Positions 1,773 to 63,635 of a stretch of 64,000 nucleotides of DNA are shown in pieces. Position 1 is the stretch's first letter, and each line of letters opens with the position of its first letter. The DNA lies in assembly GCA_002269645.1 (NCBI GenBank), contig NIVC01000592.1, positions 124,001-188,000 on the forward strand, in the 5' to 3' direction. Source of the stretch: Macrostomum lignano (Eukaryota). Below the pieces are notes generated by a model. It saw nothing but the letters and a program-made list of their open reading frames with translations, was not told the origin of the DNA and made no database searches. The position numbers and the translations under genes are program-made.

Positions 1773-11638
<9,866 letters not shown>

Positions 11639-23590: not shown

Positions 23591-24754
23591 AAAGGTTGGT
23601 TCCATACACGAGCGTATTATCCAACAGAATTGACCTGCCATTTTATTCAAATTCAAACCAGCTTACTACTAGTAGGCAGGCCAGAATTTATTTTTTTGTG
23701 TAAAGAAACTACATCCTTGACCTTAGATGATGCATTCAGTTAACAGGTTGAAAATTTAGACATTGAAGAGCAACTTCGCGGCAATTTAAGCTGCAACTGA
23801 GAGCATCCACAGCAGGTTCCAATTTGCAAACACTTGGCAATAGATCGGAATAAGGACCAGGATTTTATATTATTATGATTCTATAGATTTCATAAAAATA
23901 CGTCGACAAGCGCAAGGAGTATAAGAATATATTTTACAGGAAGGCGAAAAGTACAAAACGATGCCCAAATTGTCCGGCGGCCCTCGACAGCTTGGCAGGC
24001 AAAAAACTCGACGATAAAAAGTATTGATACCGATTAATGTACGCAGATAGGAGCGCGAGGCAGTTAAAACTCAAGAACCAACGCCATCTGTACAGGTGGA
24101 CCAGGTTGGCTGTAAACAAAGTAATTTCTCTCTAATTTATCCTCATCCTTCAGTCGTGGCACCCCGATGAAAACTGTACTCAGAGTCGTTGCAGGTAACA
24201 CAGGTAAAATGGGAAAGAAGTGGCTCTGGAGACGACTCTAAAACAACGAGATGTCACGGTACAAGTCGACAAAAAGAGTCCGAGTTGCTGTGAAATCGCT
24301 GAATTGCATCTGAAGCACATCTGCGTCATTTAATGAATTAGAATTGCATTTCGCATTCATAACAATTCTATTTATTCTAATTGGCTTAGTAGACTTTTTC
24401 AACAGTCGCCACTCCGTTGCATTGAAGTCTTTACAAGAATCGCTCCAGAGTTGCTAGAGTCACTATTGAGTTGCTTGCGGTGACTCTTTAGCGATTCTTG
24501 TCAACAGTAACGTTTTCACCGGGTCCACTCCGCTCCTCATCCTCCAGTTGTGGGCCACCAACACCTTTCTGATTGTACAGACAGGTCCAAGAAATAAAAC
24601 GATTTTGCAGATAAGAAATTGCATGCTTCGAAAGCAAACACAAACACATTGATCAGGAATAAATCTAGTGAAAGTAAAATTCAGTGTAATAAGTAATCCC
24701 TTCAATATCAGTCTTGAATAATAATTAACTATTAACAAAGCTGAAAAATGAAAT

Positions 24755-27700
24755 TCAAACATTGTGAAAGTAGAGATTAGCGCACACGCACAGCAGGAAA
24801 ATGGCCACCGAGTTGAAGTAAATTAATCGGCGAAATCTGGGCTCCAGGTCGCCTTGCCTGTACCAGTACACCTGGGCAATGGGAGAGGGGGGTTCACCAT
24901 CATATGCCTGCATCTATGGGATGGCTATAATATCTAAGGGATCTCTACATTCTCTATGGTATTTCTATAATCTTTATGGGATCTCTATAATCTATTGGAT
25001 CTCTATAATCTCTATAGGATCTTTATAATCTCTATGGGATCTCTATAATCTCTATGAGTAGTAGGAAAGTGGTACCCTCTACCGCCATCGCACCGGATTG
25101 GCCGGGGCACCCGGCCAATGAGGGGAGAGGGCCCCCAAAAGACGCCCACCCCGACCCCAGACCCACCACCGCCGCACCCACCCCCGACCCCACCACCGCC
25201 ACGCACCCACCCCCGACCCAAACCGGGCCCCCAAAGACGCCCACCCCGACCCCAAACCCACGCACCCACCCCCGACCCCAAACCGGGCCCCCTCCTATCC
25301 ATCCCAAACCAAGGCCCCTCCTGTCCTGCACCCCATCTCATAACCAAGGCCCCCTCGTGTCCTACACCCCGTACATCCCATACCAAGGCCTCCTCCTATC
25401 CTGCACCCCATCCCAAACCAAGGCCCTGCCTGTCCTGTACCCCATCCCATACCAAGGCCCCTTCCTGTCCAGCACCCCATCCCATACCGGAGGCAGGAGA
25501 AATGGGTCGGGCAAGCCCAGGAGTGGGGTCGGGCAGGCCGGTCGAGCAGGCCAGATGAGGGGTCGGGCAGCCGAGTGTCTGGTTGATTGTCCAAGGGTGG
25601 GTATCGAGATGTGAATGAGTGTCCATTGGCGAGTGTCCTCCTACCGCGTGTGGTGACACGCAGCACAGAGTTTCAATGTGATCCGGTAGAGGGCCCGATT
25701 GCTTGGAATTTCCTAGTAGAGAGGGGAAGGGATTCTATTGGTCGAGCAAGCATTTGAAGTGATTTCCGAGTAATGTGGAGAAGGGATTCTATTGGTCGAT
25801 AGGTCTCTGGTGAACGATTTGGTTTGGACCCTGCGGGAGAAGGGCCCCAGTACCCTTTATAAATAAAGCACCTCGGCCCCATAGATTTTTTATTTATTTT
25901 AGATTGAATTAAAAATACAACAAAAATGCAAATAACTTGCGACTTCTGCGAGTCATCAGTAACCGGGGGCATTGAGGAGCACTATGCGGTATGCCCTGCG
26001 ATACCAGCACTGTTTGAGTCAGATGACTCCCCAACGATTCATTTTCAACTGATCAAGGAGGCGTTTAATGGCAGGTCCCGACTTTACCGGGCCAGTGAAT
26101 GCGGCGACCCGAGGAATTTGTTGGAAAACACTCGTCAAGCTTTCATTGACTTGATCACCCAGCATCAACGTGAGCCAGGAACCGCCATCAAAGTTCAGCT
26201 GCGCCTCGGGGTCCTGATGCAGCGCATCATTAATGGCCGCTGCGCCGCCGAGAACACCGCCTGGTTTGCTGCCAAGGTCCACTCTCTTATTCGGAGTGAG
26301 GAGGAGCAATACTTCTCTGACGACATGCAGACTATCCTCAACCGGATAGAGAAGTACCTACGCAATGGCAGTGGCTGGGAAATCAGGACCACTCGGTGTG
26401 TTGACGTGTCAACCGCAAGTTATTATCTACCGCATGGAGCGTCGTGCAAAAGGCCAAGAATGAGTTCAAGAAAGACAACGGGCCGCTAAACAACTCCCTG
26501 TAGACCCTAGAGAATGTTCGCAAGCAAGTGAGCTACCGACTGGTTTATTCAAAGCCTGTGGCCAAGTCAGCATTCCGCGACCAGATGATTTTCAAGGGGG
26601 ATTTAGTTCTGGTGCACGTTCTCAAGATGACAAGCCAGTGTCGGCCAGTGCGATCTGGACACTAGCAAGCTCTTTTTCTCACAATAACATTCTTTTCACA
26701 TATCTTTAATTTTTAACTATATGCATGTAAATTTAATACGAACATACTATATTTTAAATAATAATAAATACAAGCTTTACTCTATGATATTTGGTACACT
26801 GCAGGAGAGAAAAATGCTCTTTCACAAGAATATTTTTGCCATAATTAGTCATTTTTGTGCACATCTCTGGGTTAAAATCCTCATTGAAATGTATGTATTT
26901 TATCCAAAAGTATGTAAGTTTTCGCGCACAGTGATTAAAAGTGCGCAATATGACGTGACTTTTTTTGACAACATCCGTCAATTTTCATGCACAGGTTCGA
27001 GTAAAAATCCCTATTGAAATACATGTATTTTGTGCACAAGTATGCAAGTTTTCGTGCACAGTGTTAAAAAGTATGCAAAGTGTCGAGGTTTTTCGTGCAC
27101 ACATTCGGGTAAAAATTCCCATTGAAATGTATGTATTTTGTGCAAACATGCATGCTTTTTCGTGCACAACAGAGGCTAGAAACGCTAAATCCGCAGAAAC
27201 TGGTGGGGTGGGTAGTTTTTTTTTCAAGCCAGGTGTTTGGCATAAGAAAATGATAGGTACTAGAAATTTGGTAAAATGAAAAAGAAAAAGGCAATTTCCA
27301 ACCTTCTGCCAGGTATTTATTTCGACTGCAGTAGGCCGGGCAGCTATGGCGGCTATCAGGCATTAAATCGAGAGTTGCACAAACAGCACGGGCCCAAGTT
27401 TAGTGTAGGGCAGGTATGTATATACGATATACTCCTAAACCAATGATTTTCTAGAAAATTCCAGCTTAGGTTTTTAGTTGCTAGCAGTTTCCAGTTTTCA
27501 CACTAAAGGTAAAAACGTGGCTCCAAGACCAAGATGTCTACACACTGCATAGAGATAAACGCAAAAACTTTCGTCGAGCACCGATTGTGGTGCGGGGCAT
27601 GGATGACCAGTGGGAACTGGACCTGGTTGAAATGCTACCGTTTGCCAAGTACAATGGCGGCGTACGATATATTTTATGCTGCATTGATGTGCTCAGCAAG

Positions 27701-30700
27701 TTTGCCTGGGCTCAGCCGGTGCGCCGCAAGACAGCCGAGGAGGTTGCAGCCGGATTCGAAGCGATCCTAAATCGAGCTCACCCTCGATGCCCACGAGCAG
27801 TTCGGACCGACCGTGGAAAAGAGTTTTGTAACACCCAGTTCCGAGCCCTCTGCGTAAACCACAAAATTCATGCATTCACATCAAGTAGTGACCAGAAATG
27901 CGCAGTCATTGAGAGATGGAACCGCACACTGAAATCCCGAATGTGGCGGTACTTCCGTCACAAGTCAACATTAACCTGGACCGATGTGCTTCAACCCTTA
28001 GCAAAGGCATACAACCAGAGTATTCATCGGAGTATTCAAAGCCGACCAGTTGATGTCGACAAGTCAAACGAGATGGAAATTTGGCACCGGCTTTACGATG
28101 GGAAGCTTCCTGAGACTCGTGAAAAGGTCTCCAGACCAAAGTTCAAGGCAGGAATGATGGTGCGAATCTCTCTTCGCAATCTGGCCAACCCATTCACCAA
28201 GGGATACACAAGGGGATGGAGTGAGGAAGTATTTGAAGTCAAGTCCCTCCACCCCAAGCATTATCCATACATGTACACTCTGATCGATGCCCGAGGTGAA
28301 GAGTTGGAAGGCAAGTTTTACGAGCCGGAAATGCAGCAAGTGACTGGAAACAAGAAGCTGTGGATCATCGACAAGGTTCTCAACATTAAGAAGCTGAAGA
28401 GTGGAAAGATTCGGTATTTGGTTCAGTGGCGCGATTCAGAAAAACCCAGTTGGATTGACGTCAGACTGCAGCTGATGCCCTCTCCCGCATTTTGCTACCA
28501 GATCAAGCATCCGAACCTACTTTGCTGGACTCTGACTGAGCTCCTCTACGGCATAACAGTAGTAGTGAGATCTGCCTATGCACCGAGTAATAATAATAAT
28601 AATAATAATAATAATATTTTTGCTGTAACTTTACTTCTGTATTTCTTTTGTGTACAAAAGATAAAAAAATTAACGCGAATGCGACAATAGTGTTTGTACA
28701 ACAATGCTTACGAAAGTGAAATGTTTTTTTTGTTTATTTTATTGGCAGGTCCATGGATTGCAAAGCATAAAATTACATGTTAAAAGCTCGTATTAGCACA
28801 AAAAAGTTTATTAAGAACGGAAGGGCAGTATTAAGGCCCGTCGCCTGTATTTACAAAACAGTATTATCGCCCGGAATCAAAGCATGATGGGGCAATATTA
28901 TGGCCAGTATTGACAAAGCAATATATACAACAGTGCATGATCAGTACTATGGTTCAAAACTATATTAAAAAAAAGTTAATTGACGAAATGACCAGTTGTC
29001 GCTTCATGCATTGCGCGTCGCTTCATTGGTGGCTGGTGGAATGAAGGCTGTTGGTTCTTCTCAGCTGTTGGTGGCTCTTCCAGAGTTTCGAATGTAAATC
29101 TCTTTCTAAATTCAGCCTGAACTGCTTGGAAGGCCCCCCAGTGGTCGTCCCAATCTGCCGACTGCCTGTCAGGTACTTGCATCAGTTGGTCGAGCGTAAG
29201 CCTTGCTGCCCATGCTGAACACTTCAGATTCCGTAGGGTGGTATCCCATGGATCGCCGATCGGTGGCTCGACCGGAGGCTCTCGCTTGTCATTTTGTCTA
29301 GGACCCATTGCTTTTGAGCCCAGACTTCGCGCCAAAGTGTAGTAGGAAGCGGTAAGGCGTGCCTTAGGTGCACCGGCGGTCCGAGTACAGTTGGAAGGCG
29401 CCAGAGTGTGATTACGCCATTTTGCACAACCACTTGCCTGTTGCCACCCAGAAGGCATTGCGCATCGATACACTTTCTTGCAAACTCTTCCAGTCGTTCC
29501 TTCAGGCTGCCCAAGTGGCAAAACTGGTGGACGGTGAGCTCCATGCCAGGCAGACCTGGTCGATACTCTTCATCAAATTTGTACCACTTTCTGATGCTGA
29601 TGCACTTCGAGTGCGACCTGACGCCGATTCGAAATCTGTTCGATAATGTCTTGAAGTTCATTTTGTTCACTGTGAGCTTTCCTTCCGGCTGTGTGCGAGA
29701 TTATATACGACGAGAGTTGGTAAGTAACACCAGCTCCCGCTCCATAGCAATAACCAATCCGAACCCCGAATCCAACCCCACACAACAGCCCTCTCGCAGG
29801 AACTCTCGGCAAATCAGGAGCCCTTCCGGGGACCACTCAGCCATTTAGAAACCAGCTCCTGTTCCATAGCAATAACTAATCCGAACCCCAAATCCAACCC
29901 CCACACAGCAGCCCTTTCGCAGGAACTCGGGCCTTAACAAAGTCTCAGCCATCAACGTAACAGGAGGTGGCGGGACCTTCTTGCGGCCCTCTGGCCGCCA
30001 AGAAGTAGCGTTCTAGGTCTAACGACCTCACGCTGTACCCGCCACAGCAAGATACAGTACAACCAAAGCATGGAATGAGGGTTTTGCCTTGGCTAGCTTT
30101 AAAGGCGGTAAGTGAGACAGGTAATAAGACTTGGGTTTAGGAATTAGGAGGGGGGAATTGGTTTTGGTTAGGGTACAGGATAGAAGGACCTTGCTACATG
30201 GGATGGGGCAAGGCGTAGGATAGGAGGGGGACTTGGTATGGGATGCATGGGGTGCAGGACAGGAGGGGGTCTTGGTATGGGATGCACGGGGTGCAGGACA
30301 GGAGGGGTGTAGGACAGGAGGGGGTCTTGGTATGGGATGCACGGGGTGCAGGACAGGAGGGGTGTAGGACAGGAGGGGGTCTTGGTATGGGATGCACGGG
30401 GTGCAGGACAGGAGGGGTGTAGGACAGGAGGGGGTCTTGGTATGGGATGCATGGGGTGCAGGACAGGAGGGGGTCTTGGTATGGGATGCACGGGGTGCAG
30501 GACAGGAGGGGGTCTTGGTATGGGATGCACGGGGTGCAGGACAGGAGGGGGTCTTGGTATGGGATGCACGGGGTGCAGGACAGGAGGGGTGTAGGACAGG
30601 AGGGGTGTAGGACAGGAGGGGGCCTGGTTTGGGGTCGGGGGTGGGTGCGTGGGTTTGGGGTCGGGATTGGGTGCGTGGCGGTGGTGGGTTTGGGGTCGGG

Positions 30701-33700
30701 GTGGTTTTGGGGGTCGGGGTGGGTTTGGCGTCGGGGTGGGCGTCTTCGGGGCGCCCTCTCCCCTCATTGGCCGGGTGCCCCGGCCAATCCCGTGCGATGG
30801 CGGTAGAGGGTACCACTTTCCTACTACTTTCCTACTACTACGGTAGGAGCTGGTTTCTAAATGGCTGAGTGGTCCCCGGAAGGGCTCCTGATTTGCCGAG
30901 AGTTCCTGTGAGAGGGCTGTTGTGTGGGGTTGGATTCGGGGTTCGGATTGGTTATTGCTATGGAGCGGGAGCTGGTGTTACTTACCAACTCTCGTCGTAT
31001 ATAATCTCGCACACAGCCGGAAGGAAAGCTCACAGTGAACAAAATGAACTTCAAGACATTATCGAACAGATTTCGAATCGGCGTCAGGTCGCACTCGAAG
31101 TGCATCAGCATCAGAAAGTGGTACAAATTTGATGAAGAGTATCGACCAGGTCTGCCTGGCATGGAGCTCACCGTCCACCAGTTTTGCCACTTGGGCAGCC
31201 TGAAGGAACGACTGGAAGAGTTTGCAAGAAAGTGTATCGATGCGCAATGCCTTCTGGGTGGCAACAGGCAAGTGGTTGTGCAAAATGGCGTAATCACACT
31301 CTGGCGCCTTCCAACTGTACTCGGACCGCCGGTGCACCTAAGGCACGCCTTACCGCTTCCTACAAAACTTTGGCGCGAAGTCTGGGCTCAAAAGCATTGG
31401 GTCCTAGACAAAATTGTCAAGCGAGAACCTCCGGTCAAGCCACCGATCGGCGATCCATGGGATACCACCCTACGGAGCCTGAAGAGTGTGCAGCATGGGC
31501 AGCAAGGCTTACACTCGACCAACTTATACAAGTACCTGACAGGCAGCCGGCAGAGTGGGACGACCACTGGGAGGCTTTCCAGGCAGTTCAGGCTGAATTT
31601 AGAAAGAGATTTGCATCCGAAACTCTGGAAGAGCCACCAACAGCTGAGAAGAACCAACAGCCTTCATTCCACCAGCCACCAATGAAGCGACGCGCAATGC
31701 ATGAAGCGACAACTGGTCATTTCGTCAATTAACGTTTTTAATATAGTTTTGAACCATAGTACTGATCATGCACTGTTGTATATACTGCTTTGTCAATACT
31801 GGCTATAATATTGCCCCATCATGCTTTGATTCCGGGCGATAATACTGTTTTGTAAATACAGGCGACGGGCCTTAATACTGCCCTTCCATTCTTAATAAAC
31901 TTTTTTGTGCTAATACGAGCTTTTAACATGTAATTTTATGCTTTTCAATCCATGGACCTGCCAATAAAATAAACAAAAAAAAAAACATTTCATTTTCGTA
32001 AGCATTGTTGCACAAACATAGTCGCATTCGCGTTTATTTTTTCTTATATTTTGTACACAAAAAATATAGAAGTAAAGTTATAGGAAAAATATTATTATTA
32101 TTATTATTATTATTATTACTCGGTGCATAGGCAGATCTCACTACTACTGTTATGCCGTAGAGGAGCTCAGTCAGAGTCCAGCAAAGTAGGTTCGGATGCT
32201 TGATCTGGTAGCAAAATGCGGGAGAGGGCATCAGCTGCAGTCTGACGTCAATCCAACTGGGTTTTTCTGAATCGCGCCACTGAACCAAATACCGAATCTT
32301 TCCACTCTTCAGCTTCTTAATGTTGAGAACCTTGTCGATGATCCACAGCTTCTTGTTTCCAGTCACTTGCTGCATTTCCGGCTCGTAAAACTTGCCTTCC
32401 AACTCTTCACCTCGGGCATCGATCAGAGTGTACATGTATGGATAATGCTTGGGGTGGAGGGACTTGACTTCAAATACTTCCTCACTCCATCCCCTTGTGT
32501 ATCCCTTGGTGAATGGGTTGGCCAGATTGCGAAGAGAGATTCGCACCATCATTCCTGCCTTGAACTTTGGTCTGGAGACCTTTTCACGAGTCTCAGGAAG
32601 CTTCCCATCGTAAAGCCGGTGCCAAATTTCCATCTCGTTTGACTTGTCGACATCAACTGGTCGGCTTTGAATACTCCGATGAATACTCTGGTTGTATGCC
32701 TTTGCTAAGGGTTGAAGCACATCGGTCCAGGTTAATGTTGACTTGTGACGGAAGTACCGCCACATTCGGGATTTCAGTGTGCGGTTCCATCTCTCAATGA
32801 CTGCGCATTTCTGGTCACTACTTGATGTGAATGCATGAATTTTGTGGTTTACGCAGAGGGCTCGGAACTGGGTGTTACAAAACTCTTTTCCACGGTCGGT
32901 CCGAACTGCTCGTGGGCATCGAGGGTGAGCTCGATTTAGGATCGCTTCGAATCCGGCTGCAACCTCCTCGGCTGTCTTGCGGCGCACCGGCTGAGCCCAG
33001 GCAAACTTGCTGAGCACATCAATGCAGCATAAAATATATCGTACGCCGCCATTGTACTTGGCAAACGGTAGCATTTCAACCAGGTCCAGTTCCCACTGGT
33101 CATCCATGCCCCGCACCACAATCGGTGCTCGACGAAAGTTTTTGCGTTTATCTCTATGCAGTGTGTAGACATCTTGGTCTTGGAGCCACGTTTTTACCTT
33201 TAGTGTGAAAACTGGAAACTGCTAGCAACTAAAAACCTAAGCTGGAATTTTCTAGAAAATCATTGGTTTAGGAGTATATCGTATATACATACCTGCCCTA
33301 CACTAAACTTGGGCCCGTGCTGTTTGTGCAACTCTCGATTTAATGCCTGATAGCCGCCATAGCTGCCCGGCCTACTGCAGTCGAAATAAATACCTGGCAG
33401 AAGGTTGGAAATTGCCTTTTTCTTTTTCATTTTACCAAATTTCTAGTACCTATCATTTTCTTATGCCAAACACCTGGCTTGAAAAAAAAACTACCCACCC
33501 CCACCAGTTTCTGCGGATTTAGCGTTTCTAGCCTCTGTTGTGCACGAAAAAGCATGCATGTTTGCACAAAATACATACATTTCAATGGGAATTTTTACCC
33601 GAATGTGTGCACGAAAAACCTCGACACTTTGCATACTTTTTAACACTGTGCACGAAAACTTGCATACTTGTGCACAAAATACATGTATTTCAATAGGGAT

Positions 33701-36700
33701 TTTTACTCGAACCTGTGCATGAAAATTGACGGATGTTGTCAAAAAAAGTCACGTCATATTGCGCACTTTTAATCACTGTGCGCGAAAACTTACATACTTT
33801 TGGATAAAATACATACATTTCAATGAGGATTTTAACCCAGAGATGTGCACAAAAATGACTAATTATGGCAAAAATATTCTTGTGAAAGAGCATTTTTCTC
33901 TCCTGCAGTGTACCAAATATCATAGAGTAAAGCTTGTATTTATTATTATTTAAAATATAGTATGTTCGTATTAAATTTACATGCATATAGTTAAAAATTA
34001 AAGATATGTGAAAAGAATGTTATTGTGAGAAAAAGAGCTTGCTAGTGTCCAGATCGCACTGGCCGACACTGGCTTGTCATCTTGAGAACGTGCACCAGAA
34101 CTAAATCCCCCTTGAAAATCATCTGGTCGCGGAATGCTGACTTGGCCACAGGCTTTGAATAAACCAGTCGGTAGCTCACTTGCTTGCGAACATTCTCTAG
34201 GGTCTACAGGGAGTTGTTTAGCGGCCCGTTGTCTTTCTTGAACTCATTCTTGGCCTTTTGCACGACGCTCCATGCGGTAGATAATAACTTGCGGTTGACA
34301 CGTCAACACACCGAGTGGTCCTGATTTCCCAGCCACTGCCATTGCGTAGGTACTTCTCTATCCGGTTGAGGATAGTCTGCATGTCGTCAGAGAAGTATTG
34401 CTCCTCCTCACTCCGAATAAGAGAGTGGACCTTGGCAGCAAACCAGGCGGTGTTCTCGGCGGCGCAGCGGCCATTAATGATGCGCTGCATCAGGACCCCG
34501 AGGCGCAGCTGAACTTTGATGGCGGTTCCTGGCTCACGTTGATGCTGGGTGATCAAGTCAATGAAAGCTTGACGAGTGTTTTCCAACAAATTCCTCGGGT
34601 CGCCGCATTCACTGGCCCGGTAAAGTCGGGACCTGCCATTAAACGCCTCCTTGATCAGTTGAAAATGAATCGTTGGGGAGTCATCTGACTCAAACAGTGC
34701 TGGTATCGCAGGGCATACCGCATAGTGCTCCTCAATGCCCCCGGTTACTGATGACTCGCAGAAGTCGCAAGTTATTTGCATTTTTGTTGTATTTTTAATT
34801 CAATCTAAAATAAATAAAAAATCTATGGGGCCGAGGTGCTTTATTTATAAAGGGTACTGGGGCCCTTCTCCCGCAGGGTCCAAACCAAATCGTTCACCAG
34901 AGACCTATCGACCAATAGAATCCCTTCTCCACATTACTCGGAAATCACTTCAAATGCTTGCTCGACCAATAGAATCCCTTCCCCTCTCTACTAGGAAATT
35001 CCAAGCAATCGGGCCCTCTACCGGATCACATTGAAACTCTGTGCTGCGTGTCACCACACGCGGTAGGAGGACACTCGCCAATGGACACTCATTCACATCT
35101 CGATACCCACCCTTGGACAATCAACCAGACACTCGGCTGCCCGACCCCTCATCTGGCCTGCTCGACCGGCCTGCCCGACCCCACTCCTGGGCTTGCCCGA
35201 CCCATTTCTCCTGCCTCCGGTATGGGATGGGGTGCTGGACAGGAAGGGGCCTTGGTATGGGATGGGGTACAGGACAGGCAGGGCCTTGGTTTGGGATGGG
35301 GTGCAGGATAGGAGGAGGCCTTGGTATGGGATGTACGGGGTGTAGGACACGAGGGGGCCTTGGTTATGAGATGGGGTGCAGGACAGGAGGGGCCTTGGTT
35401 TGGGATGGATAGGAGGGGCCCGGTTTGGGGTCGGGGGTGGGTGCGTGGGTTTGGGGTCGGGGGTGGGCGTCTTTGGGGGGCCCGGTTTGGGTCGGGGGTG
35501 GGTGCGTGGCGGTGGTGGGGTCGGGGGTGGGTGCGGCGGTGGTGGGTCTGGGGTCGGGGTGGGCGTCTTTTGGGGGCCCTCTCCCCTCATTGGCCGGGTG
35601 CCCCGGCCAATCCGGTGCGATGGCGGTAGAGGGTACCACTTTCCTACTACTTCTATGGGATCTCTATAATCTCTATGGGATCTTTATAATCTCTATGGGA
35701 TCTTTAAAATCTCTATAGGATTTTTATAATCTCTATAGGATCTCTATAATCTCTATGGGATCTTCATAATCTCTATGGGATCTCTATAATCTCTATAATC
35801 TCTATGGGATCTCTATAATCTCTATGGGATCTCTATAATCTCTATGGGATCTCTATAGTCTCTATAGGATCTTTATAATCTCTATGGGATCTTTATAATC
35901 TCTATAGGATCTTTATAATCTCTATGGGATCTCTATAATCTCTATAGGATCTTTATAATCTCTATAGGATCTTTATAATCTTTATGGGATCTCTATAATC
36001 TCTATAATCTCTATGGGATCTCTATAATCTCTATAATCTCTATGGGATCTCTATAATCTCTATAATCTCTATGGGATCTCTATAATCTCTATAGGATCTC
36101 TATAATCTTTATGGGATCTTTATAATCTCTATAGGATCTTTATAATCTCTATGGGATCTCTATAACCTCTATGGGATCTTTATAATCTCTATAGGATCTT
36201 TATAATCTCTATAGGATCTTTATAATCTCTATGGGATCTTTATAATCTCTATGGGATCTCTATAACCTCTATGGGATCTTTATAATCTCTATAGGATCTT
36301 TATAATCTCTATGGGATCTCTATAATCTCTATGGAATCTCTATAATCTTTAAGGGATCTCGAATCTCAGATGCATCATTTCGATTCTCAAAGGCATCTCA
36401 AAATCTCAAAAATGTCTAAAAAGTATCAGAAGGATCGCTATACTCTAAACTCACTAAGGTCTCACTAAATGGAATCCTTTAATAACATAAACTACAAAAA
36501 TGCCCAACTATACAGCCTGCCAAAATTAGCATTCCCAAATAATACAAAACCCACCAGCAGCAGATGCGAAGAGGCCAGCATGGCTATGCAGCCAGCGAAC
36601 ATGATGTTGACTCCACGCGGTGGCCACTTGGGAAAGACAAATGCGAATACCAGAGTGAGCAGTACAGAGAGGCTGACCACCCCGGCTATGATGTAGTGCA

Positions 36701-36773
36701 ACAGGCTGTCTGTTGCCCGACTCTCGCCAAACAGCGGCCGCTCAATGGGCTCATAGCGGCCACTGGAACTCAT
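24755..36773 (-). CDS. TMEM243: Transmembrane protein 243 homolog, 111 aa, two coding exons
   Basis: Exon 1 is 36555-36773 (73 aa, RPLFGES...FAFVFPKWPP..NIMFAGC), donor GTGGGT. Exon 2 is 24755-24871 (VYWYRQGDLEPRFRRLIY...LCVCANLYFHNV*), acceptor CCCAG. It matches the recalled human TMEM243 motifs RPLFGET and YWYRQGDLEPKFRKLIY..CANLYFHDV. The intron 24872-36554 (11.7 kb) hosts the Polinton. Confidence 0.92.
25727..25863 (+). promoter_or_regulatory. Putative promoter of the pPolB relic: duplicated 19-bp motif with inverted CCAAT box, plus TATA
   Basis: AAGGGATTCTATTGGTCGA at 25727 and 25781; TATAAA at 25858-25863, ~63 bp before the ATG at 25926. Function is inferred. Confidence 0.4.
25926..26665 (+). 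pseudogene. Internally deleted protein-primed family B DNA polymerase relic (left arm)
   Basis: The 187-aa ORF has the N-terminal ...IEKYLRNGSGWEI....VDVSTASYYLPHGAS motif. Another frame (26444-26665) reads AKNEFKKDNGPLNNSL*TLENVRKQ..LV..KP..K..F....IFKGDLVLVH, a damaged PolB motif B region. Confidence 0.7.
26850..27170. repeat. Three imperfect ~120-130-bp AT-rich repeats (TTGAAATGTATGTATTTT core) inside the Polinton arm; mirrored at ~33540-33860
   Basis: Core at ~26885, ~27014 and ~27122. Confidence 0.6.
27276..28690 (+). CDS. Polinton retroviral-like (RVE) integrase with chromodomain, two exons, ~439 aa (left arm)
   Basis: Exon 1 27276-27413 (MKKKK..IYFDCSRPGSYGG..), intron 27414-27508 (GTATGT...AAG), exon 2 27509-28690 (VKTWLQDQDVYTLH...). 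DDE residues in ELDLVEM, RTDRGKEF and IERWNRTLK; chromo-like YLVQW...SW. Confidence 0.9.
28976..29670 (-). pseudogene. PC4/SUB1-like ssDNA-binding domain protein, ~231 aa when repaired; 1-nt deletion in this arm
   Basis: ISIRKWYKFDEEYRPGLPGMELTVHQFCHL resembles PC4 [31 protein letters not shown]. The frame shifts at VLDK (~29290). Confidence 0.6.
30198..30839 (-). repeat. Internal third Polinton terminus (divergent TIR) with ~39-bp tandem expansion
   Basis: Reads ...GGGTACCACTTTCCTACTACT-TTCCTACTACT at 30808-30839. Clearly homologous to, but diverged from, the TIR at 25057. Confidence 0.88.
31035..31732 (+). pseudogene. PC4-like ORF, right-arm copy; 2-nt insertion at a different site
   Basis: Same N-terminus as the left copy; frameshift at CTGAAGAGTGTG (~31470). 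698-2 = 696 nt, equal to the left copy's 695+1. Confidence 0.6.
32034..33430 (-). CDS. Polinton RVE integrase, right-arm copy with the same 95-bp intron (33198-33292)
   Basis: The translation is identical to the left copy up to the poly-Asn tract; the C-terminal tail differs. Confidence 0.9.
34042..34781 (-). pseudogene. pPolB relic, right-arm copy
   Basis: The 187-aa ORF 34218-34781 is identical to the left copy. Confidence 0.7.
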
Positions 36774-37981
36774 TTGGCTAGAGTTTTATATTTGTCTGCT
36801 TTGGCGATTTCTGTTGGCTATTAATGTAGTTTTAGTTTTTTTGTGCTGCAATTGAAACCAAAGCAGTTAAATAGGATTTATATTTATATGATTTTTGTAC
36901 CTGAAATTTATTGCAATACAGATTACTACATTAATAGTAGAACTACAAAGAGGGGGAATCTCCCCTTGACAATTCTTTGCTACACAGGAATGGAGCAACA
37001 CAGGCACACAAAATTCAAGAACACAGGCTAAACTTTCTATTGTGCACCTTCTCAAACAAGAATCAAGTCGCCAGCTCTCTGGAATATTGAGATATTTGAT
37101 GATTATGCTAGAAAGTTGAAAATTTTCCATAAGCTCTAGTGTATTTAGTATGCCCCTGTGCACCAATCAGCACCCTTGCACCTCAGTGCAGCCTTGCCAA
37201 GTCTCTGAATTTCATCAGCAGGTCAACCACATGTGTCTGCATCAGCTTTGACTTTGCTGGTCACTAGAAGCCTTCACACAGACGGAGCTTCTGGACCTTC
37301 AACAGGTAGTACCAAGTGACTATAGACATATTGTTACAAATTTCTCAAGCTTTGCAAATTAAGCCTTGATGGTAGGCAAGCCTCAACAGTTTGGACATCC
37401 TTAGCTAGTCTCTCAAGCATTCTATCATTACCTGGATACCATTGGTACCTTTAAGAGATTATACCAAGTGACTAAAAACACCCAGATTTGAATTTCTCTA
37501 GTTTTGCTAAGCAACCCTCAACAGTGGGCAAGCCTTAACTTTAACTTTTGAAGCCACTAGAGACCCTCTAAATGGTAAAAAAACAAATAAAATTGTATAT
37601 TATTTATAAAATATAGCTTATATTTAAGATCATAATACAAAAAATTAGCACACATTAGAAACAAATAGCATATAGTTAGCATATAAAATAGGCTATATTT
37701 AAGGACTTTTGCTACACTTTTTGGTTTGGCATATTGTAACATATCTGCATATCCAATTTAAAAGTAAAGAATTTTGTATTTACTTGTCTTTTGTATTTGT
37801 ATGATAGTATTTCTATAGTATTTCTCTTTTATTGTATTTTCCACTGTATGTATTTATGTAATGTTGCATAATTGTTTTATAATTTAGTTTTGTTTTAATG
37901 AACAATATGAAAAAATATATAATAAATTGTCAATGGTTCACTCATAAGAGGTCCCCACTCTGATTTGGCACTTTCGGCTGA

Positions 37982-40900
37982 TGTGGTATATGCGCATATA
38001 AAGTATATTTCATTTCACACACATTGGCCATAGACACTGTCCCTGTTAACCCTGCGTTCTAAAGCTAATATAAGGAGAGCAAATATAAAGGAAATGAATG
38101 TTAACATCGGCATGGCAAGAGCCCGCTACCAAGCTTGAGATTACTAACCATAATTCACCTGGACTTCGAGTTGGTAACGGAAGTCGGATGTAACATTGGC
38201 GACGAGGATTCTTCAGAAGAAGACAAAATGACCGCGCCAAATACTGCTTCGAAAATCAGCACATTTGATCCGGCACAACCTGAAAGGTGGACTGTATACG
38301 AGGAGCGTCTGGAACAATACTTCATCGCTAAATCCATCACCAAAGAGGAGATTAAGCGAGCCGAGCTCATCACAGTAATTGGTGAAGACTGCTATACGTT
38401 GCTCAGAGACTTACTGTCTCCAGACTCCCCGAAGGACAAATCCTACGATGATTTAATTGAAAAGTTACGAACGCATTTCACCCCAACGCCGAAAAGAATC
38501 GTCGAGAGATACAACTTTCATCACCGAAGCCAGCAGGAAGGCGAATCCATTGCAGAGTATGTCGCGCAGCTACGGAAGTTGGCAGCGACCTGTTCGTTTG
38601 GAGGCTTTTTGTCAGAGGCGATCAGAGACAGACTGGTTTGTGGACTACGAAGCAAGCTGACACAGCAAAGGCTGCTGCAGGAGGACGATGTTTCACTGGA
38701 CGACGCAGTTAAAATCTCGACAGCAATCGAAATCGCAGAGAAGGGTGCAATGCAGATCCACACTGGAAGAGACATTGTCGGCCTGGCTCAGGCCAATGCG
38801 GTATGTGGAAGATCATCTGCTAAGGGATCGGGACCGACGAATCCGGCCAGTTCAGACGACCGGTGCTACAGGTGCCTCTCTTCTGGGCACTGGGCGAGAA
38901 ACTGTCCCAAAAGATTGCATGTATGCAGTCGATGCAATAAACCAGGTCATGTTGAGAAGGCGTGCAGGACGAAGCAGAAGCAGTTCAGCGGAAACCAACC
39001 GCCGCACAGCAAGAAGAAGTTCGAAACCAAGCAGAGCTACAAAGGTAGGAAAATAAAGCATCTGAGTGCAAATGGAAGCCCCGGCAGTAGTGAGAAGTCG
39101 TACGATTTCTCTGACGTCAAGAACGTCGCTGTCAATTCAAATTACGAGGCTAAGCGAATGAGCGCACAGAAGGCTCGGTTCAAGCCTTTCACAGAGACAC
39201 TGCAAGTCAACGGGTCTCCGATTAAATTCGAAGTGGACACCGGCGCCGAGCGCACAATTGTAAACAAATCGACAGCGGAACTAATCCGAGTTAAACCGCG
39301 CGGCACGACCTTGGTCCTCACATCTTATTCTAACGAACAGATTCCCCTACTTGGAGAGGCTGTGGTTCAGGTTGTATTTGGCGACATTGCGACGGAGCTG
39401 CAGGTCGTCGTCACTGACGGCACAAAGCAGAACCTGCTAGGTCGCGATTGGATAACGCAGCTTGATCCCCTGGCCCGGAAATACGCAGGAGAAGCGTCAA
39501 CAGTGGGAATTCTTTCCCTCGATGCTGATCACGAGCTCAAGACGATTCTAGAAGAAAATTCGGAATTATTCTCAGATGGTCTTGGGAAGATAAAACATTA
39601 TACAGCCAGACTGCATCTCAAGGAGAACACAACTCCAAAGTTTTGTAAAGCACGACCGGTACCATTTGCTCTTAAGCCCGCCATCGAGCAGGAACTCAAA
39701 AGCCTAGAGAATCAGGACATTATCCGGAAGGTGAAGACGTCTGACTATGCAAGTCCAATCGTCCCTGTGCTGAAGAAGGATGGAAAATCGATACGAATCT
39801 GTGCAGACTATAAGCGAACCATAAACCCTGCCCTCGAGGTGGACATTTATCCGCTAGGCAAGCCGGACGAACTGTTTACTCGACTCAGCGGAGGCAAATT
39901 CTTTACAAAACTGGACATATCTCAGGCCTTTCTTCAGCTGGAGCTACAGGAGGAGTGCCGCAAGTACACCACTATCAACACCCATATGGGCCTGTACGAA
40001 TACAACAGATTAGTTATGGGCCTGGCAAGCTCTTCAGCTCAGTTTCAGGAGGCTATGGACAAGATTCTGAGCGATACCGATGCGATTTGTTTCGTCGATG
40101 ATATCGTCATTAGCGCCGCATCACAAAGCGAGCATAACAAAAAGCTGAGAAACGTTTTGGTTCTGCTGAAGAACCACGGAATTAAACTGAACAAGAGCAA
40201 ATGTGAATTCATGATGCGCGAGATTGAGTTCCTCGGTCACGTGATCGACGAGAACGGCGTGCATCAGTCACCGAGAATTATGAGAGCCATCGCGGAGGCT
40301 CCAAGGCCAACCAATATTCCAGAAGTCCGCTCGCTAGTTGGGCTAATCAACTACTATAGGAAGTTCATCAGAGGCCTGTCCGACATCCTAGCACCTCTAA
40401 ATGCATTGCTCCAGAAGGACGCTGAGTTTATTTGGAGTAACGAGTGTGAACGAGCATTTGTTGCGTGCAAGTCAGCTCTAACATCTACTCAAGTACTAGT
40501 CCACTACGACCCGGACAAGCCGCTGGTTGTTCATACCGATGCGTCATGCTATGGTGTCGGCGCGGTGCTTTCACATATTATGAGCAATTCGGATGAGAAG
40601 CCAATCTGTTATGCGTCCAGAGGCCTGTCCAAGGCTGAGAAGAACTATTCGCAAATAGAAAAGGAAGGTTTAGCAATAGTCTTCGCGGTGAAAAAGTTCC
40701 ACCAGTATTTGTACGGCAGACGGTTTATTCTGGTCACTGACCATAAACCGCTTGTGACGATATTCGGTCCGAAGAACAACATTCCAAGCATAGCTGCCAG
40801 TTGGTTGCAGCGCTGGGCTGTGATTCTATCAGCCTATCAGTTCGAGATTCGATACAGGCGGACAGACGAACATGGAAATGCGGACGCGTTGTCAAGACTG

Positions 40901-42570
40901 CCGCTGGAGAATACTAAGTCCACGGAGGATGGTGTGTTCCAGAATCGCATAGAGGCTCAACCAATCGACCATGGAGAGTTAAAGAGAGCAACAGCGATGG
41001 ACGAAAATCTGTCCCGTGTTCTGCGATACTGTCGTTTTGGGTGGCCAGAACATAGCGAACAAGAGCTTCAGCCCTACCACTCGAGGCGAAACGAGCTGAG
41101 TGTTGAAGATGGAGTCATCTTTTGGGGCATCAGGATGTTGATCCCTGCTTCACTGAAGCAGCAGCTACTGCAACTGCTACACGAAGGGCACCCCGGCATT
41201 GTGGGCATGAAGTCCCTGGCACGGCTGCATGTTTGGTATCCAGGGATCGATAAAGACATCGAGACGGCTCTAACCAAATGCAAGGGTTGCCAAGCGCAGA
41301 GGAACCTGCCGCCACAGGCGCCACTGCAGCCGTTGCTCTGGCCAGAAAAGGCATGGACTCGACTTTACTTGGACTTCTTTAGTCCATGCTACGGGTTCAT
41401 GTGGCTTGTCGTTGTCGATGCCACAACCAAATGGGTTGAAATTTACCCGATGAGGTCAGCGACTGCCCATGGCACGATCACCAAGCTGCAGGAAACTTTC
41501 GCGAGATATGGTTATCCGAGGCAAATCCTCTCTGACAATGGGTCGCAGTTCACTGCTGAGGAATTTAAAAACTACCTTCGAAGCTGCCGCATCACACAAA
41601 TTCTGACGTCGGTGGGGCATCCAAGATCGAATGGACTAGCTGAACGAATGGTTCAGACCGCCAAAAGAGCGTTAAGAGCGGGCATGAAGGACTCTCATGA
41701 TGCACTAGAATGCCTAAATGCTTTTCTAGCGCGCTACCGAGTTACGCCACACTCTACAACCGGCAAGACGCCTAGCGAGATGATGCTAAAGTACTCGCCA
41801 AGAACTAAACTTAGTCATCTTCACCAGGACACCGAGCAAAGAGTTGCTGAGAAGCAGGAGCAGCAGAAGCAGCAACACGACAAGGGAGCTTCAAAAGTAG
41901 CCCGTGAGTTTGAACCTGGAGAATCTGTGCTTGTGCTCGACTTCAGGAAGCAAGGAGAGGACAAATGGGTCGTCGGAGAAATTCTTAAACGCCGTGCACA
42001 ACTCTCATATCTGGTGAAAGTAGGCCGCATGGTCTGGAAACGGCATGTGGACCACATTACTTCGACAGGACTTCAAACGGAGAGCAAGGCCGCTTTGTCC
42101 CATGAATTGCTGGAGCAGCTAATCGGGAAAGGCAATAACGAGTCGCAGGCAATTAACTCAGGCGGAGGAGCGACAACCAAGACTAGATGTGCGGAGACTG
42201 CCCAGGCCAGGAGGCATCGCTACAAGCATGAGGATGTGCCTCTAACTCAGACCAGACTGAGACCCCGAGCTGCAACTTGATGTGACGGAAATTTTTGTTT
42301 AAGAGGAAAACTTACTCTTGCACAATGACGAACAAATTTTTCTAAGGGGAGACATATGTGGTATATGCGCATATAAAGTATATTTCATTTCACACACATT
42401 GGCCATAGACACTGTCCCTGTTAACCCTGCGTTCTAAAGCTAATATAAGGAGAGCAAATATAAAGGAAATGAATGTTAACATCGGCATGGCAAGAGCCCA
42501 CTACCAAGCTTGAGATTACTAACCATAATTCACCTGGACTTCGAGTTGGTAACGGAAGTCGGATGTAACA
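37982..42570 (+). mobile_element. Full-length Ty3/Gypsy LTR retrotransposon, Mag-like, 4,589 bp
   Basis: 214-bp LTRs (37982-38195, 42357-42570; TG...CA; one mismatch seen). 5-bp TSD GCTGA. PBS TGGCGACGAGGAT (complement of the tRNA-Ser(GCU) 3' end). PPT AAGGGGAGAC. Confidence 0.97.
38228..42280 (+). CDS. Gag-Pol polyprotein, 1350 aa, uninterrupted
   Basis: Two CCHC knuckles (CYRC..GH...NC, CSRC..GH...AC), protease VDTGA, RT FVDD, RNase H TDAS..EKE, integrase HEGH..CKGC with D,D,E (LDFF, SDNG, AERMV). Confidence 0.96.
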   Translation: MTAPNTASKISTFDPAQPERWTVYEERLEQYFIAKSITKEEIKRAELITVIGEDCYTLLRDLLSPDSPKDKSYDDLIEKLRTHFTPTPKRIVERYNFHHRSQQEGESIAEYVAQLRKLAATCSFGGFLSEAIRDRLVCGLRSKLTQQRLLQEDDVSLDDAVKISTAIEIAEKGAMQIHTGRDIVGLAQANAVCGRSSAKGSGPTNPASSDDRCYRCLSSGHWARNCPKRLHVCSRCNKPGHVEKACRTKQKQFSGNQPPHSKKKFETKQSYKGRKIKHLSANGSPGSSEKSYDFSDVKNVAVNSNYEAKRMSAQKARFKPFTETLQVNGSPIKFEVDTGAERTIVNKSTAELIRVKPRGTTLVLTSYSNEQIPLLGEAVVQVVFGDIATELQVVVTDGTKQNLLGRDWITQLDPLARKYAGEASTVGILSLDADHELKTILEENSELFSDGLGKIKHYTARLHLKENTTPKFCKARPVPFALKPAIEQELKSLENQDIIRKVKTSDYASPIVPVLKKDGKSIRICADYKRTINPALEVDIYPLGKPDELFTRLSGGKFFTKLDISQAFLQLELQEECRKYTTINTHMGLYEYNRLVMGLASSSAQFQEAMDKILSDTDAICFVDDIVISAASQSEHNKKLRNVLVLLKNHGIKLNKSKCEFMMREIEFLGHVIDENGVHQSPRIMRAIAEAPRPTNIPEVRSLVGLINYYRKFIRGLSDILAPLNALLQKDAEFIWSNECERAFVACKSALTSTQVLVHYDPDKPLVVHTDASCYGVGAVLSHIMSNSDEKPICYASRGLSKAEKNYSQIEKEGLAIVFAVKKFHQYLYGRRFILVTDHKPLVTIFGPKNNIPSIAASWLQRWAVILSAYQFEIRYRRTDEHGNADALSRLPLENTKSTEDGVFQNRIEAQPIDHGELKRATAMDENLSRVLRYCRFGWPEHSEQELQPYHSRRNELSVEDGVIFWGIRMLIPASLKQQLLQLLHEGHPGIVGMKSLARLHVWYPGIDKDIETALTKCKGCQAQRNLPPQAPLQPLLWPEKAWTRLYLDFFSPCYGFMWLVVVDATTKWVEIYPMRSATAHGTITKLQETFARYGYPRQILSDNGSQFTAEEFKNYLRSCRITQILTSVGHPRSNGLAERMVQTAKRALRAGMKDSHDALECLNAFLARYRVTPHSTTGKTPSEMMLKYSPRTKLSHLHQDTEQRVAEKQEQQKQQHDKGASKVAREFEPGESVLVLDFRKQGEDKWVVGEILKRRAQLSYLVKVGRMVWKRHVDHITSTGLQTESKAALSHELLEQLIGKGNNESQAINSGGGATTKTRCAETAQARRHRYKHEDVPLTQTRLRPRAAT

Positions 42571-62800: not shown

Positions 62801-63635
62801 GGGTGGCATGGATTAGCGGAGGTGGCAGGGATTAGCGGGGGCAGGGATTAGAGGGGTGGCATGGATTAGCGGGGGGCAGGGACTAGCGGAGGTGGCAGGA
62901 ATTAGCGGAGGTGGCAGGAATTAGCGGGGTGGCAATGATTAGCGGGGTGGCGGGGATTAGCGGGGGTGGCAGGGATTAGTGGGGTGGCAGGGATTAGAGG
63001 GGGTGGCATGGATTAGCGGAGGTGGCAGGGATTAGCGGGGGGCAGGGATTAGAGGGGGTGGCATGGATTAGCGGAGGTGGCAGGGATTAGCGGGGGTGGC
63101 ATGGATTAGCGGAGGTGGCAGGGATTAGCGGGGGTGGCAGCAGTAAGCAGGAGTTCCAACCCCTGCAGTTTCCGGTTTCTGCAGTCACCACTCGCCCAGC
63201 CAGAGCCCCCTGACCCTCAGTCCCATCCAAGGCCGAGTGCCGCAGGCGGACCTGGAATTCGGGACCCCCGCTGAGCTCTCCGGTCTTCCCTTTCCCACTG
63301 CGCCAGCCGCAGGGGAAGCGCCGCACCGATCGGCTTTGGGAGCCGCCTGCCGCACAGGTCGGGGTGTTGGTGGGAGTTTTATCCCAGGAATTCGCTGCGG
63401 GGACAATCGAGATAAAATATCAGTGTTGTGGCAGTTCGAATTTGCATAATTGACAATCCGCAACTCGCTCGCTCGGGTGGGAGGCGGAGAAGGCGGGGAT
63501 CCGCGAGCGCTCGCGACTCCCGCTGCGAGCATCGGGAAGAATTCAAAGAGGGAAAATATCCCAATCTCGTGGTTTTTTGCGCAGATGAAGCTAGGCAAGG
63601 AGGTCGCGGGGAGATCGCGGGCGACCCGCTGCGCG
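59847..63635. repeat. Inverted duplication: arms ~59847-61002 and ~61818-63635, 815-bp spacer
   Basis: Mirrored translations in the ORF track (60600-60806 minus = 62013-62219 plus). The internal GCTAATCCCTGCCACCCC minisatellite spans ~135 bp in the left arm and ~790 bp in the right arm. Confidence 0.9.

Follow-up and report, generated by a model that had tools for sequence, protein, structure and literature searches.

Layout of the element

The window analysed here is a 64,000-nt stretch of the Macrostomum lignano genome (assembly GCA_002269645.1, contig NIVC01000592.1, positions 124,001-188,000 of the forward strand), and all coordinates refer to it. It holds a Polinton derivative of 10,595 bp (25057-35651), which is almost a perfect mirror image of itself and encloses a third end in the middle. 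The identity between its two arms (25057-29860 and 30845-35651) is 98.9%. The features are as follows.

25051..25056, plus strand: left target-site duplication TCTATG (6 bp), inside a 20-bp minisatellite; single copy in the empty allele on contig C365
25057..28621, plus strand: outer left arm with left-type end, 187-aa ORF, integrase and deletion junction; 0 substitutions relative to the right arm
25926..26489, plus strand: 187-aa ORF with 46% identity to the N-terminus of the protein-primed polymerase of the family
27599..28690, plus strand: rve integrase with a weak chromodomain match; native C-terminus truncated at the deletion junction, reading on into other sequence
28460..28461: private deletion junction without microhomology, where core genes amounting to about 5.3 kb are missing relative to copy C3493
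28461..28621: switch interval with an (AAT)n run, where helper-type sequence gives way to copied sequence in the right arm
28622..29860, plus strand: inner left arm of the C738/C3493 lineage (polymerase-less copies) by lineage-informative sites; PC4-like gene
29669..30828, plus strand: long terminal repeat of the kind usual in the family (about 1.16 kb), present at both ends of polymerase-bearing copies; contains the 29860 break
29729..29929, plus strand: 78-bp direct repeat in two copies (29729-29806 and 29851-29929), period 122
29861..30844, plus strand: unpaired spacer of 984 bp with the rest of the terminal repeat, a 39/16-bp tandem array, the buried terminus and the filler
30812..30828, minus strand: buried right terminus, AGTAGTAGGAAAGTGGT as read on the minus strand, an exact tip pattern
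30829..30844, plus strand: 16-nt filler, an 11-nt tip duplicate bounded by a 3-nt ACT repeat, then ACGGT
30845..32085, minus strand: inner right arm (end approximate), 0 substitutions relative to polymerase-bearing C110 and C1157; PC4-like ORF
31044..31685, plus strand: PC4-like ORF of the right arm
32086..35651, minus strand: outer right arm (start approximate), which mirrors 25057-28621 together with its private deletion junction
35652..35657, plus strand: right target-site duplication TCTATG, from the sequence and the empty allele

The exact TCTATG duplication, checked against the empty allele, brackets the whole 10.6 kb, and the flanks, which differ from one another, are colinear with two empty alleles. 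Polintons (Mavericks) are described as having terminal inverted repeats with the end motif (AGT)2 or (AG)3 (PMC8097293); the element has AGTAGT at both 25057 and 35651, along with the 6-bp target duplication and the retroviral-type integrase of this class (PF00665, E 4e-13 in both arms, over the curated cut-off). A protein-primed family B polymerase is represented only by the 187-aa ORF that resembles its N-terminus, and the packaging ATPase, protease and capsid genes have been deleted. Judged by its sequence, the copy is a non-autonomous Polinton derivative and not a complete Polinton. Relatives that share sequence with it carry DNA_pol_B_2 (PF03175, E 6e-12), AAA and Peptidase_C48 matches under the curated cut-offs, and a 423-aa candidate capsid ORF with no Pfam match. 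The 187-aa ORF possibly encodes a putative terminal-protein domain; it has no Atlas match, and its single-sequence structure model (pLDDT 36) is unusable. The PC4-like gene of the inner left arm lies on the minus strand and stops earlier than the right-arm version. Rfam gave no matches across 24000-37000.

Allowing at most one mismatch, the deletion junction has two matches in the genome, and both are arms of this element. Because the junction is common to both arms and absent elsewhere, one of the outer arms is a copy, either of the other arm or of a sister molecule. On either side of the deletion the left arm is C3493-like, and an apparent 10-bp microhomology at the junction proved to be alignment overrun.

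Two lineages in the two arms

The arms differ by no substitutions in their outer 3,565 bp and by 32 in the inner 1,239 bp, a skew with a probability of 1.5e-19 under an even spread; the outer right arm also has four single-base indels in C/G runs. These 32 inner sites were used to paint lineages across 24 right-end copies. The right arm carries the alleles of C110, C1157 and C254 at 32/32 sites, and the left arm those of C738 and C3493 at 29/32. C1157 and C254 have common flanks, so the three right-arm matches represent two independent loci. All three carry polymerase sequence, and C738 and C3493 are absent from the tblastn polymerase matches. Between 28663 and 28818 the left arm has three substitutions and one 2-bp gap unmatched by the copies aligned. 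Within the 161-bp switch interval there are no substitutions between the two lineages; the AAT count in both arms is of the C110 type, one unit above C738 and C3493, and C4138 has the same count as C110.

Since the right arm follows polymerase-bearing copies and the left arm polymerase-less ones, the element is a two-parent chimera in which one outer arm is a copy of the other. The initial annotation had proposed a template jump inside one lineage, which does not agree with inner arms derived from two. As in a copy-back genome, a terminus is duplicated as a long inverted repeat and internal genes are lost, but the 32 inner sites and two lineages do not fit copying from a single template, which would leave the arms identical as far as the rejoin point. 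The element thus seems to work like a copy-back genome, yet is not a simple one.

The buried terminus and its joint

The terminal sequence CTTTCCTACTACT at 30816-30828 is followed by a repeat copy, TTCCTACTACT, at 30829-30839, by ACGGT at 30840-30844, and then, from 30845, by the inverted arm, a mirror of the left arm read outward from 29860; in these particulars the initial annotation was right. It had also called the buried repeat divergent. The terminus is real, but its last 209 nt differ from 13/13 other right-type ends compared by only 1-3 substitutions. The buried and left tips have their first 111 nt in common at 95% identity. The buried end is an undecayed right end that is standard for the family, and the left tip differs from it because it is another end type.

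Exact matches to the 17-nt tip pattern number 63 across the genome, against none for its reversed control. The 19-nt stutter pattern has one match, against two for the reversed control, so it is position and not rarity that gives the stutter meaning. It coincides with a buried end at 1/63 termini and was not found at the free ends of the 60 other tips, where it had been sought, the nearest case being C114, where 6 nt of the target site resemble the tip. None of those 60 other termini adjoins element-internal sequence, and 21/24 two-ended family copies have an exact 6-bp duplication; the buried joint is therefore unlike an integrase joint. Terminal simple repeats of animal Polintons are expected to serve jumping-back initiation (PMC8097293; PMC4196379; 10.1101/2024.03.18.585575), and the stutter had been read as sliding or jumping-back of this kind, but it is compatible with slippage over the ACT repeat in either direction and does not single out jumping-back initiation. 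As template for the last five filler bases, a CGGTAG near the tip is not significant, since 13 of the 64 possible 3-mers do equally well; the 5-mer form of the test gave no match and carries no weight.

The break at 29860 had been placed in an internal direct repeat of about 120 bp. It does fall 10 nt within the second repeat copy, but the repeat is about 78 bp long with a 122-bp period, and the break is joined to the terminus with no homology and not repeat to repeat. The proposed jump at this repeat is thus not upheld, nor is the repeat a shared fusion point, because the joints of the other head-on copies examined, C862 and C1016, fall elsewhere. C862 has its own duplication and arms of 2,678 bp and 682 bp (99.6%), and records two successive switches onto near-identical sequence of its own, without microhomology; C1016 is a left-left product with its own duplication and arms about 90% alike. 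Other unusual copies include C1330 and C414, each with one terminal repeat apparently short of one repeat unit (probably an ordinary collapse), C1330 also having mirror-image host flanks, and C1769, whose mismatched flanks indicate ectopic exchange in the family.

Formation of the element

We consider it probable that the element is a defective Polinton with arms from two lineages, formed free during protein-primed replication and then integrated as one unit. In a polymerase-less copy, deletion of core genes over about 5.3 kb would have left a 5.8-kb molecule. The structure of such a complete mini-element, as annotated initially at 25057-30839, is present; its free existence is supposed. No monomer, alone or with target duplications of its own, was found in the assembly (40/59 candidates scored; junction pattern search, at most one mismatch), and this step therefore has no separate witness. 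A strand begun at the left end would next have run off the right end and slipped back, presumably in this direction, over the 3-nt ACT repeat, adding the 11 nt and then the five more nt seen in the filler. The strand would then have been linked head-on to a helper-type copy with polymerase, entering the right terminal repeat of that copy at position 29860 and following it inward for 1.24-1.4 kb, which accounts for the two-parent origin observed. Since the helper stretch is the complement of sequence made earlier in the same strand, a panhandle may have folded, and self-templated completion from 28461-28621 to the left tip would yield the identical outer arms that are seen. Finally, an integrase would have used the two left tips, leaving the 6-bp duplication. 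Panhandles are a standing model for protein-primed replicons and end repair (PMC11886824; PMC4196379).

We take the left arm to be the primary molecule, as it is continuous with one lineage across the deletion junction, and the stutter would then lie at a run-off 3' end and not at an initiation site. This polarity, opposite to the bottom-strand reading offered initially, is favoured with fair confidence, although the C110-type AAT count in both arms mildly favours the other. The sequence fits the element's polymerase and host repair enzymes alike, and both a fold-back and recombination with a second monomer.

It is unlikely, though conceivable, that the same two parents were joined by the host, in that polymerase-theta-type end joining attached a broken helper copy at the right end of the monomer, while a second monomer, by homologous recombination or gene conversion, supplied the identical outer arm before integration. 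A direct repeat of nearby sequence made from a short primer repeat, with small insertions, is the loop-out product of synthesis-dependent end joining (PMC2943611), a 3-nt repeat does bound the 11-nt duplicate, and a crossover in the substitution-free switch interval would yield the same pattern. Such joining would still need free, co-resident molecules, however, and a second monomer of which the assembly has none, and the double switch of C862 is simpler as polymerase copy-back. A purely chromosomal history, in which an inverted insertion into another copy's terminal repeat was followed by deletion and gene conversion and the composite then moved by its two left tips, would accommodate the two parents and the ectopic exchange known in the family. 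We consider it improbable, as the clean joints of the family's integrase contrast with the 16-nt filler here, no parent remainder flanks the element, the empty allele is colinear, and a donor locus with either junction is absent from the assembly. Nor does the joint resemble nested integrase insertion, which would leave a direct joint, a 6-bp duplication and a target remainder; the missing part of a right-hand element with a matching duplication, named initially as the sign of nested insertion and later deletion, was not found nearby.

Palindromes and multi-copy repeats are prone to assembly error, and a palindromic read or mis-assigned reads might have made the mirror arm or swapped alleles during assembly or polishing. 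No read or contig bridging the buried joint is among the matches listed in four runs, and the flanks of C1330 suggest that artefacts or chromosomal fold-backs may occur in this assembly. An artefact is nevertheless very improbable: the different flanks are colinear with empty alleles around an exact duplication, each inner arm is a clean and distinct real haplotype, and a mis-join to a C110-type read would continue to the tip and flank of that copy instead of ending at 29860 in a templated duplicate. A replication-linked change of template, the core of the initial proposal, remains the best explanation of a Polinton derivative inserted as one unit with a joint that an integrase did not make.

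It is tempting to go further, at what we would judge slightly less than an even chance, and to see the element as a frozen record of a defective and a helper Polinton in the same germ-line cell, whose own polymerase ran off, jumped and was finished by panhandle copy-back; together with C862 and C1016, it would suggest that the family routinely makes defective-interfering-type genomes that the integrase archives. Polinton replication is known mostly by analogy, and in a 2025 paper on PRD1 direct evidence for panhandles in protein-primed replication is described as still lacking (PMC11886824). If true, the frozen-record reading would provide natural sequence evidence for intermediates that have so far been only a model. 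A dated molecule, inserted as a unit, in which helper- and defective-lineage sequence lie in inverted orientation and divergent arms turn sharply into identical ones, argues for coexisting free DNA of different Polinton genomes in germ-line cells, for template exchange between them and for end rebuilding through inverted repeats. Two-parent copying is also a possible route to the family's mosaicism and changing terminal-repeat lengths. This is one event, seen once, and comparable adenovirus and linear-plasmid products are known.

Comparison with known systems

An adenovirus mutant with embedded inverted terminal repeats, an internal terminus in a protein-primed linear genome, was reportedly described by Haj-Ahmad and Graham in 1986, and Wang et al. 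are said to have found in 1991 that adenovirus minichromosome ends undergo inverted-repeat-directed repair, in which an end is rebuilt via an inverted repeat. Those cases are laboratory products that do not integrate, whereas the present element is natural, two-parent and chromosomally fixed by an integrase.

With animal Polintons the element shares the (AGT)2 end motif, the 6-bp duplication, the rve integrase and, in family members, DNA_pol_B_2. It differs in lacking the polymerase body and core genes, in its two left ends and buried right end, and in its 4.8-kb arms from two lineages. Defective Polintons, in the available portions of the reports (PMC8097293; PMC4196379; 10.1101/2024.03.18.585575), are decayed fossils and not rearranged palindromes; palindromic, copy-back or embedded-terminus Polintons are absent from the literature matches listed, a coverage that leaves most subscription papers outside.

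Copy-back and snap-back defective viral genomes are similar in their inverted end duplication, internal gene loss and helper dependence (PMC6140465), and the unit insertion and helper-type sequence suggest that the 10.6-kb element may likewise have replicated free with a helper. As described there, however, those are genomes of RNA viruses made on a single template, whereas this is DNA with a second template and the original far end kept inside. Synthesis-dependent microhomology-mediated end joining also produces insertions that repeat adjacent sequence from a short primer repeat (PMC2943611), but it would account for the 16-nt filler only and not for a 3.6-kb copied arm. Integrated invertron-type mitochondrial plasmids such as pAL2-1 have kilobase inverted repeats that are attributed to protein-primed panhandle intermediates; the repeats of pAL2-1 are host mtDNA flanking the plasmid (PMC1864894), while those described here consist of element sequence within the target duplication.

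Structure and insertion of the element

The element at 25057-35651 looks like a real, recent, non-autonomous Polinton derivative, with a copy-back-like genome from two parents and an embedded terminus. It spans 10,595 bp, and its arms are 98.9% identical. Both arms carry an rve integrase (PF00665, E 4e-13) together with a PC4-like gene. Its parts are:

25057-29860, left arm
29861-30844, spacer of 984 bp, holding a buried right-type terminus that ends at 30828; its final 11 nt are duplicated at 30829-30839 and followed by ACGGT
30845-35651, inverted right arm, the mirror image of the left arm starting at 29860 and going outward

The tip, repeated 11-mer, ACGGT linker and inverted arm are as the initial annotation described them. 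Its description of the terminal inverted repeats as imperfect is correct in that the left and buried tips do differ, but the difference reflects the two end types of the family. Over its last 209 nt the buried end differs by 1-3 substitutions from 13 of the 13 other right ends compared, and it is an ordinary right end of this family. Left arm and spacer together correspond to an 11-kb-type copy without about 5.3 kb of core. The break at 29860 falls 10 nt inside the second unit of a 78-bp repeat that had been proposed as its cause; because the sequence joined there is a terminus lacking homology, the repeat has no visible role.

TCTATG stands on either side of the element, and element-free versions of the locus occur on contigs C365 and C1762. 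In C365 the left flank passes straight into the right flank, less exactly six bases, so the composite inserted as a single unit. The assembly holds three versions of the locus (C365, C1762 and the contig of the window, C592; window 24000-57400 compared), with the element in C592 only. A young Ty3/gypsy-type retrotransposon at 37982-42570 (LTRs of ~215 bp at 99.5%, 5-bp duplication GCTGA, 1,350-aa gag-pol ORF) is missing from both other alleles. The window also holds another large inverted repeat at 59861-63610 (arms of ~1.1 kb broken by a 19-bp tandem array, spacer of 815 bp) and a MITE-like 165-bp inverted repeat at 3722-4113 (96%, 65-bp spacer).

Family copies and related rearrangements

The 17-nt tip has 63 exact matches genome-wide (reversed control, 0), and exact 6-bp duplications accompany 21 of the 24 copies with two exact tips; the same end motif and duplication are reported for vertebrate Mavericks (PMC8097293). 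Two layouts predominate. One has ~1.16-kb terminal repeats matching window 29669-30828 at both ends, together with a protein-primed polymerase (PF03175, E 6e-12). The other, of ~11 kb, differs in its left end, which resembles window 25057-26870, and its only polymerase content is a 187-aa ORF with 46% identity to the polymerase N-terminus. This stand-alone ORF (~187 aa; window 25926-26489) is kept by polymerase-less copies and has about 15 close relatives; the polymerase N-terminus is where the terminal protein has been placed (10.1101/2024.03.18.585575). Besides a PC4-like gene, the family core holds one resembling TBP (PF00352, E 6e-19, in two stretches), as at L075:3124-3720. A 5.6-kb copy on contig C1863 (L071) has polymerase sequence but otherwise contains little of the monomer (left arm plus spacer).

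The initial annotation had suggested looking for 5.8-kb monomers with their own target-site duplications. None stands alone in the genome, by the junction pattern and among the 40 of 59 candidates scored, because the private deletion junction has just two genome matches, one in each arm. The 11-mer stutter, sought at free ends, occurs at one of 63 tips, the buried one, a count uninformative by itself since the stutter pattern's reversed control gives two matches. Among the 60 tips outside the window, the surroundings of which were all fetched, none adjoins element-internal sequence. As to other dimers with the same breakpoint, two further head-on products do exist, but both break elsewhere. 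C862:327172-340125 (L038, L039) is a second palindromic derivative with right-type ends on both sides, a 6-bp duplication AGTATC, outer arms of 2,678 bp (6 substitutions), inner arms of 682 bp (2 substitutions) and two switch points; it looks like a single-parent copy-back. C1016:331990-336311 (L063) is a 4.3-kb head-on fusion with two left ends and the duplication CATATC; its arms are ~90% alike throughout their length, and it evidently has two parents and arms that were not homogenised. At C1277:51537-63464 (L048, L067) an internal segment is inverted and interrupted, with a break near the position of window 30014. The host flanks of C1330:160934-172957 (L068, L069) mirror each other over at least 330 bp without target duplication, and may represent either a chromosomal fold-back or an assembly artefact.

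Parentage of the arms

Divergence between the arms is uneven, with no substitutions and four single-base indels in C/G runs in 25057-28621 (3,565 bp), 31 substitutions over 28622-29341 and one more at 29796; under an even spread, such clustering has a probability of 1.5e-19. When 24 right-end copies were scored at the 32 arm-distinguishing sites, right-arm alleles were found at 32 of 32 in C110, C1157 and C254, all of which contain polymerase sequence (C1157 and C254 have common flanks and were counted as one locus), and C110 and C1157 show no substitutions from the right arm over 1.4 kb. Left-arm alleles were found at 29 of 32 sites in C738 and C3493, which have no polymerase hits. Compared in windows of 200 bp, the left arm resembles C3493 between 27500 and ~30200, the deletion spanned, except for a few private changes at 28663-28818; left of 27500 the arm is mosaic, and no one copy is closest to it. 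These site matches, and the likeness to C3493 across the deletion, show that the inner right arm stems from a helper-type (polymerase-bearing) molecule and that the element has two parents. The outer 3.6 kb of the right arm, private deletion included, is evidently a copy of the left arm, and the switch from helper-type to copied sequence falls within 28461-28621, an interval free of substitutions between the lineages.

Formation of the element

We consider it fairly probable that the element arose by two-parent copy-back of free molecules, followed by insertion as a unit. A deleted polymerase-less molecule would have been copied from left end to right end, where the 3' end may have slipped back across the ACT repeat bounding the 11-mer and gained a few extra bases. 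The strand would then have joined a helper-type copy within that copy's right terminal repeat and continued along it in the inward direction. Because this helper sequence is complementary to what the strand had already copied, panhandle folding could let the strand complete itself; the outer arms would come out identical, and the integrase would have two left tips to act on. The joint at the buried end was evidently not made by the integrase; the free molecules, direction of synthesis, panhandle and enzymes involved we infer. Run-off synthesis is quite probably the right direction; the opposite polarity, first proposed, needs three templates instead of two. The C110-type AAT count in both arms, a labile character also present in C4138, speaks in favour of that opposite polarity.

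Host end joining combined with recombination with a second monomer would give the same sequence outcome, and the filler is compatible with loop-out synthesis (PMC2943611); the last filler bases, however, have no significant template (13/64), and we regard this origin as unlikely. A chromosomal nested insertion is more doubtful: the filler, the lack of a donor locus and the missing remainder all contradict it. An assembly artefact seems slightly more improbable still, contradicted as it is by distinct colinear flanks, the exact duplication and two clean haplotypes; in its favour, none of the matches listed among contigs from 4 of 11 runs containing the stretch spans the buried joint.

Relation to known systems

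Publications reportedly describe an adenovirus mutant whose terminal repeats are embedded, as well as adenovirus minichromosomes with ends repaired under the direction of repeats. The prevailing model for adenovirus and PRD1 has the displaced strand fold into a panhandle, and explains in this way how homology between the ends is restored; such panhandles are said to lack direct evidence (PMC11886824). A racket-like intermediate has been proposed for Polintons (PMC4196379), and long inverted repeats left behind by invertron plasmids are attributed to panhandles (PMC1864894). A 2026 preprint (10.64898/2026.10.13.758929) reports that related viruses have internal repeats and genomes in tandem mosaic form; neither 'panhandle' nor 'template switch' occurs in its text. 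No description of a Polinton of such kind was found among the papers listed in the literature searched, most subscription papers lying outside its scope. The kind of rearrangement is already known. The element would be valuable as sequence evidence for encounters between helper and defective Polintons in the form of free DNA, and for the rebuilding of their ends through inverted repeats.
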